64,000 nt of DNA from the NCBI GenBank assembly GCA_965219575.1, contig OZ244779.1, positions 332,769-396,768 of the forward strand. Reading direction: 5' to 3'. Below are positions 4,082 through 60,985 of the stretch, one piece after another (the first letter of the stretch is position 1; the number at the start of each line of letters is the position of its first letter). Made by a program: the position numbers and the translations under genes. The notes beneath the pieces are model-generated. The model was not told where the DNA came from. It searched no databases and saw only the letters and a program-made list of their open reading frames with translations. The DNA comes from Candidatus Oxydemutatoraceae bacterium (GTDB taxonomy: Bacteria > Pseudomonadota > Gammaproteobacteria > Poriferisulfidales > Oxydemutatoraceae).

Positions 4082-5068
4082 CTATTGAAGCGGTCCTTCC
4101 AAGAAAACTTTGCTACGAATGTAAATAGCTAGCGGATCGCCAATAGTGACCGTGGTTTGACGGCATGATCGGTTATTCATTGCTTGAGTCTCGGTCAGGT
4201 TACTGGGCGGGTTACTTTCCCCTATCACTATGGAAAACTGCTCTTCACCCTCAATACGATTGTCTCTCACTATCAGGTTTTCCAATGTGAAGCTGTTTTC
4301 GCCTGCTTTGATGACCACCGGAGTTATGGGGTTATAGTCAACATTCTTGAACGCCGTTTCATCGGTATAGATGAGTGTTACCGTGGTATTCCTATTCAAG
4401 CCTATCGTGGTATCGGCATTCTCCCCTCTGCGCAGTTCAATTATCGGTAGGTTGGTATTATCGCCCTCTCGAACGGAATAACTCCGTTGCGAGAAGCAAA
4501 GTAAGTATTCATCGTCCAATACCCTGAAAGTGATAGAACTGTTGGTACCACTGCGTCTGATATTGCTGGAGATATTATTAGGTGTAGGCATTGAGCCTAG
4601 AGAAATTAATATATCATTATCGCCGCCGGGATTTAAAGCAGAGTTATCGTTGAGCTGCCATTCCAATGTTGCGGTTTGCGCGTTTGCACCGCTAAAGGTA
4701 ATACTTTGAGTAAAAAGTTCCTTATTAAAATTTAGGCTAACACCATCACCGGATACGAGTCTTAGAATCCCAGTTTGTTGAGGAATCCCAGGTTGTTGAG
4801 TTAGCTGCCCTTCTGTGGAGAAAGTTAGCTGTAGTGATTGACCGGTTCTAAGCGGTCGGCTTAAAGAGATGGAAAACCGTATCTTGGGTCCGACAAGCCT
4901 ATCGCCTTGAGGGATGCCTTCGTATATCGGTGAAGGAGACAATCGCTCTATGCTATATATCAAGTCTTGTGCGACGGCAGACTGTGTAAAGCAAAGAGCC
5001 AACAAAAACAAGCCGAATAGCAATACACGCCGACGATAGGTATTGTTGTTGTGGACATAAGTATTCAT
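4082..5068 (-). CDS. Secreted beta-rich protein with Calx-beta-like domain and C-terminal IRSKVFLEGPLQ tag
   Basis: Signal peptide ending AVA-Q; FSQRSYSVREGD...TA..NVDY...DNRIEGEEQF is Calx-beta-like; C-terminus shared with 60476-60985. Confidence 0.75.
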   Translation of the reverse strand: MNTYVHNNNTYRRRVLLFGLFLLALCFTQSAVAQDLIYSIERLSPSPIYEGIPQGDRLVGPKIRFSISLSRPLRTGQSLQLTFSTEGQLTQQPGIPQQTGILRLVSGDGVSLNFNKELFTQSITFSGANAQTATLEWQLNDNSALNPGGDNDILISLGSMPTPNNISSNIRRSGTNSSITFRVLDDEYLLCFSQRSYSVREGDNTNLPIIELRRGENADTTIGLNRNTTVTLIYTDETAFKNVDYNPITPVVIKAGENSFTLENLIVRDNRIEGEEQFSIVIGESNPPSNLTETQAMNNRSCRQTTVTIGDPLAIYIRSKVFLEGPLQ

Positions 5069-5227
5069 AGCGGTATTTTACCCGAAATGTAACCGACATG
5101 TGTAGGGGTGAACATCGTTGAATTGCCTATTGACCTACCGGCTCAACCGGCGGCTCTATATTTATAATTGTAATTATTATAATTTATGTTATAATTCGTT
5201 CCTTTGATAAATTAACTGGAGTTTCAA

Positions 5228-5566
5228 ATGAAATACATAATTAGTGTTATACAGCCGTTCAAGCTGGACGAGGTCAGAGACGCACTCTCTAACGTTGGTG
5301 TTAAGGGAATGACGGTCTCTGAAGTCAAAGGCTTTGGGCGTCAAAAGGGGCATACCGAGTTTTATCGGGGCGCGGAATATGTAATTGATTTCTTGCCCAA
5401 GCTAAAAATCGAAATTGCAACAACCGATGCGCAGGCAGAGCAAGTGGTCAATGTCATTAGAGAGACCGCAGGCACCGGCAAAATCGGCGACGGCAAGATA
5501 TTTGTCTTAAATTTAGAGCAATCTATCAGAATTCGTACAGGAGAAACAGGCGATGAAACAGTTTAA
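5228..5566 (+). CDS. glnK: PII nitrogen regulatory protein
   Basis: [27 protein letters not shown]; upstream of amtB. Confidence 0.95.
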
Positions 5567-6857
5567 TATTTTTACTTACCTATTTAAGGCATTGCTGGTT
5601 TCAGCGTGCCTGTCGATACCGGCTTATGCGCAGGACGGGTTGGACGGCGGAGATACCGCATGGATACTCACGTCGACCGCTTTGGTCTTATTAATGACCA
5701 TACCCGGGTTATCACTTTTTTATGCCGGATTAGTCAGGTCTAAAAATGTGTTATCGGTCTTAATGCAGTGTTTTTCAATCACTTGTCTGGTCTCGATTGT
5801 ATGGCTGATATACGGCTATAGCCTCGCTTTCAGCGACGGTGGCGGCATGAATAGCTGGCTCGGCGGATTGAGTGCTATGGGATTGATGAGCGTTGATCGC
5901 GGTGCCATGTCCGGCACCATACCGGAGACGGTATTTGTCATGTTTCAGCTGACCTTTGCGATTATCACGGTGGCACTCATCGTCGGTGGCTTTGCCGAGC
6001 GCATGAAGTTCTCGGCAATGTTATTGTTTAGCTTGCTTTGGGTGACAGCTGTCTATTTCCCGGTATGTCACTGGGTCTGGGGCGGTGGCTGGTTGGGAGA
6101 AGCCGGCTTGCTTGATTTTGCCGGTGGCACTGTGGTGCATATCACCGCCGGTGTCGGCGCACTGGTCGCAGCGATCGTGATGAAATCTCGCACCGGGTTC
6201 CCTACCACACCGATGCCGCCGCATAACCTCGTTTTGACGGTAGCCGGTGCCAGCATGCTGTGGGTCGGCTGGTTCGGCTTTAACGGCGGTAGTGCGCTTG
6301 CTGCAGGCAACGACGCAGGTATGGCAATGCTGGTCACACATATCAGTGCGGCAGCGGCTTCCTTGACTTGGGCGACGGTTGAATGGATTAAACACGGCAA
6401 GCCTAGTGTTCTAGGCATCGTGACCGGTATGGTTGCAGGTTTGGGCACAATCACGCCGGCTTCGGGTTTTGTCGGTCCTATGGCTGCTTTGGTCATCGGC
6501 ATCTTGGCCGGTGGTATTTGCTATACTGCAACACAAGTTATCAAGAGAACCCTGAAGATAGACGATTCTTTGGATGTGTTCCCGGTACACGGTGTCGGAG
6601 GTGCTTTAGGCACCATACTGACAGGTGTGTTTGTTGCCAGCCAATACGGTGGTGCCGGTTTAGCCGATGGTGTTACCATCAGTGAACAGGTCATGATACA
6701 GATAATGGGAGTGGTTGCAGTTATCGTTTGGACTGTAATAGCGAGCTTCGTGATTCTTAAGGTCGTTCAAGCACTCGTTGGTCTGCGGGTTGACGAAGAC
6801 GAAGAAATCGAAGGCTTGGATGTCAAGCAATACGACGAGAAAGGCTATAACTACTAA
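5553..6857 (+). CDS. amtB: Ammonium transporter
   Basis: [32 protein letters not shown]. Confidence 0.96.
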
Positions 6858-6948
6858 TAGCATAACTTTTTATGGTGAGATGATAGAGGAACTACAAGGA
6901 TGTAGTTTCTCTATCGTTTTTTTGAAGCGTAGGTATCTGCAATATCTT

Positions 6949-59949: not shown

Positions 59950-59978
59950 TTGACGAAGTTATGCACCGGTTTTATAAT
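59950..59978 (+). promoter_or_regulatory. Near-consensus sigma70 promoter of paralog 5
   Basis: TTGACG-17 nt-TATAAT, duplicate of 59338. Confidence 0.7.
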
Positions 59979-60010
59979 AATAATTCACAGACAACAAAGG
60001 GAGATTAGAT

Positions 60011-60364
60011 ATGTCAGAAATAGCACTTTACGACACATTAAGAAAAATAGACGGAGTATCCGATGCCGAAGCAAAGGAAGCTGTTGCCGATGTTGCGAGT
60101 AATAAAGATGTTGCGACAAAGGCAGATATAATAGAGCTAAAAGCGGAAACAAAAACAGATATCAAAGATATGGCGACCAAGTCCGATATAGCGGAGGTAA
60201 AGACCGATATAGCAGAGGTAAAGACTGATATAGCAGAGCTAAAGGCAGATGTAACAGAATTAAAGGCAGACGGCAGGGCTATGAAGTGGATGTTGGGTTT
60301 ATTGCTGGCGATAAATGTTGCCTTTATTGTGTCGGCTGTTAGCTTGCTAGTTAGGTTTGCATAA
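60011..60364 (+). CDS. Small coiled-coil membrane-anchored protein, paralog 5 (expanded heptads)
   Basis: Two ATK(A/S)D motifs and 21-nt K(T/S/A)DIAEV repeats. Confidence 0.78.
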   Translation: MSEIALYDTLRKIDGVSDAEAKEAVADVASNKDVATKADIIELKAETKTDIKDMATKSDIAEVKTDIAEVKTDIAELKADVTELKADGRAMKWMLGLLLAINVAFIVSAVSLLVRFA

Positions 60365-60475
60365 CTAGATTTAGCTAAGTGTAGTACAGGTGATGTTCTC
60401 CCTAAATTTAGCACCGATGCTAAAGTTAGTTTTTCCGATAAACTAGAGAAGTTAAAACATTGGAGGGGAATGGAA

Positions 60476-60985
60476 TTACTGGAGCGGACCCTCTAGAAAA
60501 ACTTTGCTGCGGATGAAAATAGCCGTGCCGGGGTAAAGTAAAGCAAAGTTATTAGGATCCCGTTGGAAACGATCATCAGCATCAAACAACTCAATTCTTA
60601 TAGTTTGACGCCTATCAAAAGGCCTATTCAATGTTAGTCTCAGGGTTATATCGTTTTCGCTAGCAGCAGCATCTATGCAGACGCGATACGTGAGTTGTCC
60701 TCTTAAGTTAGTGCGTGTGAGAGGATTTGTCTGTCCACAGGCAGTATAGCCCGGAGCATCTAAGATGTTTCCCTCTGCGAGAGAAACACCGAAAAATACA
60801 ATTGGATAATCTGCAAAGTTACTACCCGTAATTTGCTCGCTTAAGCTGATGCTGAAATTTATTGTGAAGGTCGTGGTTGATACCATTCCTAGGCTAGCCA
60901 TAACTTGCGCGGAAGCCCCATTTGCCGAGCAGATGAACAGTAAGCACAAACCGGCACGGATTAAGTAATATCGAAAGTATTTCAT
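60476..60985 (-). CDS. Small secreted beta-rich protein with C-terminal IRSKVFLEGPLQ tag
   Basis: Likely start MKYFRYY at 60985, signal peptide ending ASA-Q; last 12 aa identical to 4082-5068. Confidence 0.7.
   Translation of the reverse strand: MKYFRYYLIRAGLCLLFICSANGASAQVMASLGMVSTTTFTINFSISLSEQITGSNFADYPIVFFGVSLAEGNILDAPGYTACGQTNPLTRTNLRGQLTYRVCIDAAASENDITLRLTLNRPFDRRQTIRIELFDADDRFQRDPNNFALLYPGTAIFIRSKVFLEGPLQ

Follow-up and report, generated by a model that had tools for sequence, protein, structure and literature searches.

A peptide of about 15 residues is carried, mostly at the C-terminus, by unrelated and apparently secreted proteins encoded within a 64,000-nucleotide stretch of a Candidatus (Ca.) Oxydemutatoraceae bacterium genome (contig OZ244779.1, positions 332,769 to 396,768; this whole stretch is called the window below). 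The peptide, which we call the tag, has the consensus [A/T][I/L/F]x[I/L/V][R/Q]x[K/R]V[F/L]LEG[P/A]L plus 1-4 further residues and is probably a recognition peptide of a new, lineage-restricted kind. Its cargo is unrelated and exported, it is under selection, its copies are dispersed and flexible in position, and in structure models it does not pack against its own protein in cis, which together suggest a recognition peptide with a common partner. The tag is very short, is tolerant of any protein position and is so far confined to uncultured sponge symbionts, the surface biology and host contact of which are poorly understood.

Results

Four tagged genes in the window

Two of the tagged genes lie on the reverse strand. 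The first (4082..5068, minus strand) encodes a secreted protein of 328 residues in which Pfam places a Calx-beta domain at residues 185-311 (profile positions 3-117 of 119), and the gene ends with the tag AIYIRSKVFLEGPLQ (4085..4129, minus strand) followed by a TAG stop codon. The second (60476..60985, minus strand), characterized by its open reading frame (ORF), by alignment and by AlphaFold, encodes a small secreted beta-sandwich protein of 169 residues (P0004) and ends with the tag AIFIRSKVFLEGPLQ (60479..60523, minus strand) and a TAA stop codon. The original prediction held that the bodies of these proteins are unrelated, and a BLASTP comparison of the two agreed: only the 15-residue tag was in common, with 14 of its 15 residues identical.

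The other two genes are paralogs on the forward strand. One encodes an S8 protease (41365..43668, plus strand; Peptidase_S8, P_proprotein and He_PIG domains in Pfam), which ends in the tag variant TIQIQLRVLLEGALTR (43618..43665, plus strand) before a TAA stop codon, the last residues being IQIQLRVLLEGALTR. The second protease gene (38323..41247, plus strand) has a leucine-rich repeat (LRR) module after the tag. Its internal tag, AFQVQLRVLLEGAL (40486..40527, plus strand), lies between the He_PIG domain and the LRR module; in its shorter extent, FQVQLRVLLEGAL (40489-40527), it stands immediately ahead of the LRR part recognized by Pfam. ORF translations and a check of the coordinates located all four tag sites where they had been placed originally. 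The Sec-type signal peptides attributed to the four proteins are plausible by eye, with a basic stretch, a hydrophobic stretch and an A-x-A-like site before Q.

Relatives of these proteins retain the tag. It is kept in two orthologs or paralogs of the Calx-beta protein (P0002 and P0003) and in the orthologs of the S8 protease encoded at 41365-43668 (P0012-P0015, P0020, L011 and L051). The S8-tag-LRR arrangement of the paralog is found also in L034 and P0032, and a further copy of the S8-LRR paralog, in L009, shows 93.6% DNA identity.

Conservation of the tag at the protein level

The degenerate DNA pattern for [KR]V[FL]LEG[AP]L gave four matches in the window versus 0.01 expected, and none of 100 shuffles reached four. 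In the six-frame translation of the window, all four occurrences of the shorter string LEG[AP]L are part of the extended motif. When scored with a profile of the tag the four ORFs gave 42.8-46.4 bits, and the next best six-frame piece of the window gave 4.5 bits.

The two IRSKVFLEGPLQ tags of the window, which are the most similar pair, differ by eight synonymous codons and one non-synonymous codon in 15. Among the 22 copies of the tag for which we have DNA, the invariant residues V, L, E, G and L are encoded by 3, 5, 2, 4 and 5 different codons, respectively. As the invariant residues are spelled with two to five codons each, selection acts on the protein. Hence, conservation is at the protein level, as had been proposed, and the tag is under strong purifying selection.

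These codon data contradict an artefact of the DNA, in which a mobile cassette, gene conversion or a recombination site would copy the same 45 bases onto gene ends. Such an origin might be suspected from the intergenic repeats that are abundant in the window, some of them adjoining tagged genes, and from the gain or loss of LRR modules exactly at the tag. However, eight of 15 codons are synonymously different even in the closest pair, invariant residues use up to five codons, no flanking DNA is held in common and, except for the protease paralogy itself (D7), the repeat families lack tags. We regard the artefact as extremely improbable. Stop-codon readthrough or a common downstream element was likewise ruled out, as the tagged genes use TAA, TAG and TGA stops and are followed by unrelated DNA; within the window nothing was found in common 3' of the stop codons of the tagged genes.

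Distribution of the tag

We scanned 185,579 species genomes with a DNA pattern for [ATSP][ILMF]x[ILVMF][RQH]x[KRNSQH]V[FL]LEG[AP][LF], which returned 55 loci (labelled L). The true tag was present only in 16 of these loci, which came from four metagenome-assembled genomes (MAGs), three of Ca. Porisulfidus and one of Ca. Oxydemutatoraceae. Thirty loci fell into an unrelated family, the members of which have Cys motifs and an internal AIxIQD[RK]VFLEGPF. Five others, from Bacteroidota, Calditrichia and other MAGs, have [KR]VFLEG[AP]F as the start of a C-terminal domain of 205-232 residues. The last four were isolated chance matches, including L025, an Ldh_1_N-like cytoplasmic protein ending in ...RVLLEGALTE, which was judged to be a chance match and rejected.

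A looser regular expression applied to the window and to all 55 loci gave 23 copies, namely that in L025 and 22 in the window or the four symbiont MAGs. Seventeen of these 22 DNA-verified copies stop 1-4 codons past the core (at TAA, TAG or TGA), three are internal before an LRR module and two are N-terminal. As two tagged genes of L023 were found by the regular expression and missed by the scan pattern, the genome scan is a lower bound. A single genome carries several copies: four in the 64-kb window, and five and four pattern matches in two Porisulfidus chromosomes.

A tag profile (a hidden Markov model) built from the 22 tails was searched against 1,835,955,588 representative proteins at E <= 0.001. 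There were 31 matches, of which 30 were true and one (P0018, a protein of TPR repeats) was false. The tag is within four residues of the C-terminus in 29 of the 30, exactly one residue following the core in 27 and two or four residues in the other two; the remaining match is internal, in an S8-LRR protein. The matches overlap with the proteins of the scan loci and the counts are not independent. The only named sources among them were a Chromatiales MAG and a Ca. Oxydemutatoraceae MAG. Word-index protein searches with the tails returned only close relatives of each cargo, a weak negative because proteins having eight 5-residue tag words in common were missed.

Thus, the C-terminal character claimed for the tag stands as an enrichment (29/30 true profile matches and 17/22 DNA-verified copies) and falls as a strict rule, since relatives hold N-terminal and internal copies. 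As far as scanned, the tag is restricted to these sponge-symbiont lineages. Porisulfidus is listed among known sponge symbionts in PMC12988363 and serves as an outgroup to SUP05 in PMC9123188, and PMC11685487 describes Oxydemutator as a sponge symbiont. The window itself is 93.6% identical over 2.8 kb of DNA to a Ca. Porisulfidus sp. MAG (OZ244052.1) and 80-89% identical to two other Porisulfidus MAGs, with gene order conserved.

Cargo proteins and position of the tag

The domains that Pfam recognizes ahead of the tag are Calx-beta, He_PIG, Cadherin-like, Big_2/Big_9, and Glug plus Cadherin-like, the Cadherin-like beta-sandwich repeats being those of giant proteins. Two further tagged families have no Pfam match. 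One consists of small proteins of about 170 residues: an alignment of seven members shows body identities of 42-82% with P0004 and no variation at 14 of the 15 tag positions. The other is a Cys-rich family represented by three tandem secreted paralogs (L023, 593-4039), all ending in ...LRLRVFLEGPLR. Of the profile matches having an apparently complete N-terminus, 11/11 start with a hydrophobic, signal-like segment as judged by a crude rule.

Position within the protein is flexible. In two Oxydemutatoraceae proteins (L006 and L054) the tag is preceded by a signal peptide and some 20 residues of linker and is followed by a GGS-rich linker; the bodies beyond differ, that of L054 being PPC (pre-peptidase) repeats. 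In L034 (2-2602), which holds an ortholog of the S8 protease encoded at 41365-43668, an LRR module is joined 2-3 residues past the tag, whereas the window protease itself and L051 (1994-4039) stop two codons past the tag and have no LRR. The tag sits at a recurrent junction between modules.

Two tagged loci gave observations in their own right. In L053 (1997-3349) a tagged gene is reduced to its last 27 codons, with ORFs that by eye resemble IS3-type transposase genes directly upstream; it would be a pseudogenized cargo gene. In L016 (1-1128) a T2SSE (type II/IV secretion ATPase) gene is convergent to a tagged giant cadherin-like gene, an arrangement that may be coincidence because it was seen at one locus only.

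Proteases are prominent among the carriers, and the tag could be a processing or maturation site that is cleaved or modified, possibly by tagged proteases of the S8 or kexin-like type. Instead of docking, the outcome of cleavage would be release or activation of the cargo, or separation of a protease and its LRR module. Several properties are in keeping with such a site: the S8 plus P-domain proteases carry a distinct variant of the tag, the N-terminally tagged L054 protein has pre-peptidase repeats, a basic residue always lies just before VFLEG, the site can be internal or N-terminal, and the tag lies in a stretch predicted to be exposed and unstructured. However, in 27 of 30 matches the single residue after the core leaves almost nothing to remove, and fifteen conserved residues having an amphipathic strand pattern exceed the typical needs of a protease site. 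Moreover, kexin and furin sites have a dibasic pattern, whereas the basic residues of the tag alternate with hydrophobic ones. We consider processing to be fairly improbable.

The lineages and the cargo also bear on whether the tag is a host-directed motif, by which many symbiont surface proteins would show the same epitope to the sponge and bind one of its molecules. All named sources are sponge-symbiont lineages, two distinct lineages (about 44-50% versus 45-60% G+C) put the tag on different cargo families, the cargo includes eukaryote-like LRR and cadherin-like modules, and independence of position would suit a linear binding motif. Yet the tag variants are specific to lineage and cargo class (LRLRLRVFLEGPLR, IRIRVKVFLEGPLQ and QLRVLLEGAL), which fits co-evolution with a bacterial partner at least equally well, and the evidence for a restriction to sponge symbionts consists of a few MAG titles. 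In our estimate, a host-directed motif is quite improbable.

Structure predictions

The original prediction would have failed had the tag been the last strand of one domain common to all four proteins. Instead, at least five domain types precede the tag and their Pfam models end before it, being near-complete at that point (Calx-beta to position 117/119 and He_PIG to 91/96). Structure prediction agreed, as AlphaFold left the invariant core unpacked against the neighbouring domains. In an AlphaFold2 model of a He_PIG-tag-LRR piece, made with 11 alignment rows, the LRR domain was confident (block mean predicted local distance difference test (pLDDT) 85-98) and He_PIG moderately so (74-85), whereas residues 82-96, which are exactly the tag, had pLDDT below 50 and no secondary structure. 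The small protein (7 alignment rows, mean pLDDT 66) was modelled as a beta-sandwich body, and the pLDDT of its invariant core KVFLEGPLQ (residues 161-169) was again below 50. The tag is thus independent of the neighbouring domains, a module of its own.

These models also speak to a purely structural role as a terminal cap, linker strand or self-associating strand, which would stabilize the last Ig-like domain or bundle the proteins with no dedicated partner. In most cargo the tag begins 1-4 residues past the last beta-sandwich strand, the small-protein model has a strand at TAIFI, and similar VFLEGP strand-turn motifs occur inside unrelated families. Against this, a cap is not expected to be invariant over five different domain types, to lie between disordered linkers at an N-terminus or to be left unplaced by AlphaFold beside confident domains. 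A structural role of this kind is in our view improbable.

Structure-based searches added little on the body of the small protein: Foldseek against the PDB gave generic beta-sandwiches only, with TM-scores mostly below 0.5, and the ESM Atlas gave a weak Calx-beta/CARDB lead at 0.79 only. An ESM Atlas search with the tail gave no usable match. By sequence, no PDB chain matched the tag profile at E <= 10, and none matched the L006 body, which by eye might be taken for trypsin-like.

Look-alike motifs in other families

The five Bacteroidota-type loci (L005, L007, L012, L030 and L040) have [KR]VFLEG[AP]F at about 2000-2040 in each locus. The motif opens the domain of 205-232 residues noted above, in which VDWVLIELR...RNDG...HRNHL is followed by dockerin-like D-x-N-x-DG repeats. 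The cargo before the domain is InlB B-repeats, an Ig_N_CWD1 protein or an EEP nuclease. No Pfam family matched the domain, and a PDB sequence search gave chance low-complexity matches only; the domain could in its own right serve sorting or docking and be new to the literature. It resembles the tag in having the same core motif directly after diverse cargo domains, and differs in that the motif opens a long domain and ends in F rather than L. We take this likeness as a lead and not as evidence of homology, because the search pattern imposed it and because the unrelated Cys-motif family matches too. A hidden Markov model of the domain minus its first strand found nothing in the window and the 16 tag loci (about 128 kb), the best match having E = 2.6.

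The 30 loci of the Cys-motif family (for example L001, L004, L015 and L042) belong to a widespread and apparently cytoplasmic family, in which a ...VNC...GTCFC.S motif lies about 25 residues after the internal AIxIQD[RK]VFLEGPF. This family is unrelated to the tag and so shows that strand-turn motifs of the VFLEGP kind arise repeatedly by convergence.

Other features of the window

Gene content of the window includes rnpA-yidC-mnmE, the atp operon and serine-cycle-type genes. The latter form a cluster at 8033-13334 that consists of a hydroxyacid dehydrogenase, two CoA-ligase subunits, an HpcH/malyl-CoA-lyase-like gene and a class-V aminotransferase. Together with the methylene-tetrahydromethanopterin (H4MPT) dehydrogenase domain found in a related MAG (L024, 2-844), the cluster hints at one-carbon (C1) or glyoxylate metabolism in the sponge symbiont. 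An IS1595-type transposase gene lies at 28378-29052. The region 48245-53757 looks like a defence or restriction region and contains an N6_Mtase fragment, a 492-residue repeat protein having no Pfam match and a 1087-residue helicase with a C-terminal MTES_1575 nuclease domain.

Intergenic repeat families are dense in the window (1423-1896, 30125-30460, 37923-38245, 43694-44045, 45159-45337, 55071-55423, 59690-59768 and 62630-62788). They comprise a 186-nucleotide unit present five times, several units of 40-90 nucleotides and a palindrome, GTAGGGGCGGAC...GTCCGCCC, of which nine copies are listed at >=62% identity, and they look like repetitive extragenic palindromic (REP) or miniature inverted-repeat transposable (MITE) elements. 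Some of the repeats lie beside the tagged protease genes and give rise to spurious ORFs, such as 37909-38316 and the first ~100 codons of 43839-45065.

A family of small proteins beginning MSEIALY... has Lys/Asp/Glu-rich repeats, a C-terminal hydrophobic segment and no Pfam match. Copies are found in the window (60011-60364 on the plus strand, ~59257-59550 and 54297-54942) and in L053 (996-1250 and 1546-1803), and the family adjoins a tagged gene in both places, the small one in the window and the truncated one in L053.

Discussion

A probable recognition peptide and its putative partner

The model that we favour for the tag is as follows. Ca. Porisulfidus, Ca. Oxydemutatoraceae and the related Chromatiales MAG would put a self-contained tag of about 15 residues on many unrelated Sec-exported proteins, the proposed cargo set being giant cadherin-like/Ig-like adhesins, S8 proteases, Calx-beta proteins, small beta-sandwich proteins and the Cys-rich family. 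After export across the inner membrane one common putative partner would recognize the tag and route or dock all of the tagged cargoes to the same place; this partner could be sorting machinery, a scaffold on the outer membrane or surface, or possibly a factor of the host. The tag may bind as an added beta-strand, by beta-augmentation or strand complementation. The common partner, its identity and binding by strand addition are inferred, and we assess them separately. That one common partner reads the tag seems to us somewhat better supported than the contrary, whereas strand complementation specifically is plausible but less likely than not.

Several features of the tag and its genes are pertinent to this model. 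The first ten residues of the tag alternate hydrophobic with polar, often basic, side chains, and the end has the invariant E-G, then P/A and L. This alternation together with the E-G-P/A turn gives the look of an amphipathic edge strand and so suggests binding as an added beta-strand. The N-terminal and internal copies indicate that a free C-terminus is not required, and this freedom of position is more in keeping with a docking peptide than with a sorting signal of the classical C-terminal kind. No neighbouring gene recurs among the 52 ORFs of the window and the 18 neighbour ORFs of the related loci. Several dispersed copies having no recurrent neighbour look like a cargo set served by a distant machine. 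The earlier statement that no partner is identifiable in the window was borne out, as the Pfam domains of the window ORFs include none.

A number of points weigh against this model. Neither the window nor the 2-kb flanks of the 16 related loci yielded a partner. The internal and N-terminal copies are at odds with classical C-terminal sorting signals. In the AlphaFold model of the small protein TAIFI, the first third of the tag, pairs as a strand at moderate confidence, and the low confidence elsewhere in the tag could stem from the shallow depth of the alignments (7 and 11 rows). The assignment of signal peptides relied on visual inspection and on a crude hydropathy rule, and 19 of the 30 profile matches are N-terminal fragments. 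All of the tag data come from MAGs, and owing to the restrictive DNA pattern and to a profile listing that extended to E = 0.001 the true range of the tag may be wider.

A more ambitious version of the recognition peptide, which we think unlikely, is that an orphan 15-residue beta-strand supplies the missing strand of a partner domain and constitutes a new sponge-symbiont docking system. Placed between domains or at either terminus, the strand would act as the plug of a split domain of which the partner is the socket, and proteases, giant adhesins and small beta-sandwich proteins would be pinned to one scaffold on the bacterial surface or the host. The Bacteroidota-type domain could then be an unsplit ancestor of the socket. 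If docking by a split strand is true, the tag could be categorically new, and if strand complementation is true it would amount to a small natural docking tag that might be useful to protein engineers.

The tag already defines a cargo set of adhesins, proteases, LRR proteins and cadherin-like proteins that is likely to be at the symbiont-host interface, and the peptide is a concrete handle for fishing out the partner.

Comparison with known tags and docking systems

Sortases, exosortases, rhombosortase and the type IX secretion system (T9SS) are machines reached via common sorting tags, and the tag lacks the hallmarks of the signals of all four. The claim that it matches no described sorting-signal family withstood NCBIfam and Pfam searches of both proteins and tails. 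The four whole window proteins gave no sorting-signal model in NCBIfam at E <= 1, and the 22 tails gave no match to any NCBIfam or Pfam model at E <= 10. In the literature searched, strings of the tag motif gave only irrelevant matches, and nothing relevant was among the matches listed for sponge symbionts, sorting signals and cadherins.

The tag resembles the PEP-CTERM, LPXTG and GlyGly-CTERM signals in being a short lineage-specific peptide found on many unrelated Sec-exported adhesins and proteases, with copies scattered in each genome. The PEP-CTERM signal of the exosortases, located at the very C-terminus, comprises a PEP motif, a transmembrane helix and an Arg-rich tail, the LPXTG signal of the sortases has an LPXTG-like motif, a hydrophobic segment and a basic tail, and the GlyGly-CTERM signal of rhombosortase is a Gly-Gly motif followed by a C-terminal transmembrane helix. 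As only 1-4 residues follow the core of the tag, there is neither a transmembrane helix nor a basic tail, as originally noted. Unlike PEP-CTERM, the tag has no hydrophobic helix and matches no NCBIfam/TIGRFAM sorting model. The LPXTG motif with its hydrophobic segment and the GlyGly-CTERM signal are absent from all 22 tails, again with no NCBIfam match. Moreover, unlike these three signals, the tag persists also at N-terminal and internal positions.

The T9SS C-terminal domain is likewise a beta-structured C-terminal signal of proteases and giant adhesins. However, it is a folded domain of 70-100 residues that is matched by the type A or type B sorting-domain models, whereas the conserved part of the tag is 15 residues, its carriers are Gammaproteobacteria and no NCBIfam or Pfam model matches it. 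The beta-signal of outer-membrane proteins is the C-terminal strand of a beta-barrel protein and has an aromatic last residue. The tag is similar in being a C-terminal amphipathic beta-strand, but its cargoes are soluble multidomain proteins rather than barrels and, in agreement with the original prediction, none of 29 C-terminal tags ends in F, W or Y, the last residue being Q, R or E.

Among docking systems, the Ca-binding module dockerin has about 60-70 residues and contains duplicated loop-helix motifs. Cohesin-dockerin and the tag are alike in that a modular tag, possible at either end of the cargo, brings diverse enzymes to one scaffold (for the tag, a putative one). Unlike dockerin, the tag has 15 residues and no Pfam match. 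The cohesin matches of the small-protein model in Foldseek reflect a generic beta-sandwich with TM-scores mostly below 0.5, and no cohesin-like partner was found.

By analogy, the closest working model for how the tag acts would be the donor strand of pili. The donor strands of chaperone-usher pili (an N-terminal extension) and of type V pili (at the C-terminus) are, like the tag, terminal peptides of about 10-15 residues with alternating hydrophobic residues beside Ig-like domains, a type of peptide that would be suited to filling in the sheet of a partner. The alternation like that of a beta-strand noted originally is evident in the first ten residues of the alignment of the 22 tails, the alternating positions being I/L/F, I/L/V, L/V/A/S, V and L. 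Unlike pilus donor strands, the tag is found on enzymes and giant adhesins rather than on pilins, and no chaperone or usher Pfam domain was present among the 52 window ORFs or the 18 neighbour ORFs of the related loci. Nor was an acceptor that lacks a strand identified.

In general terms, a sorting or docking tag is the same short peptide on unrelated Sec-exported cargo, present several times per genome and enriched at a terminus, and this is what we found. The tag is a new member of this class that lacks the defining features of each of the known systems testable here.

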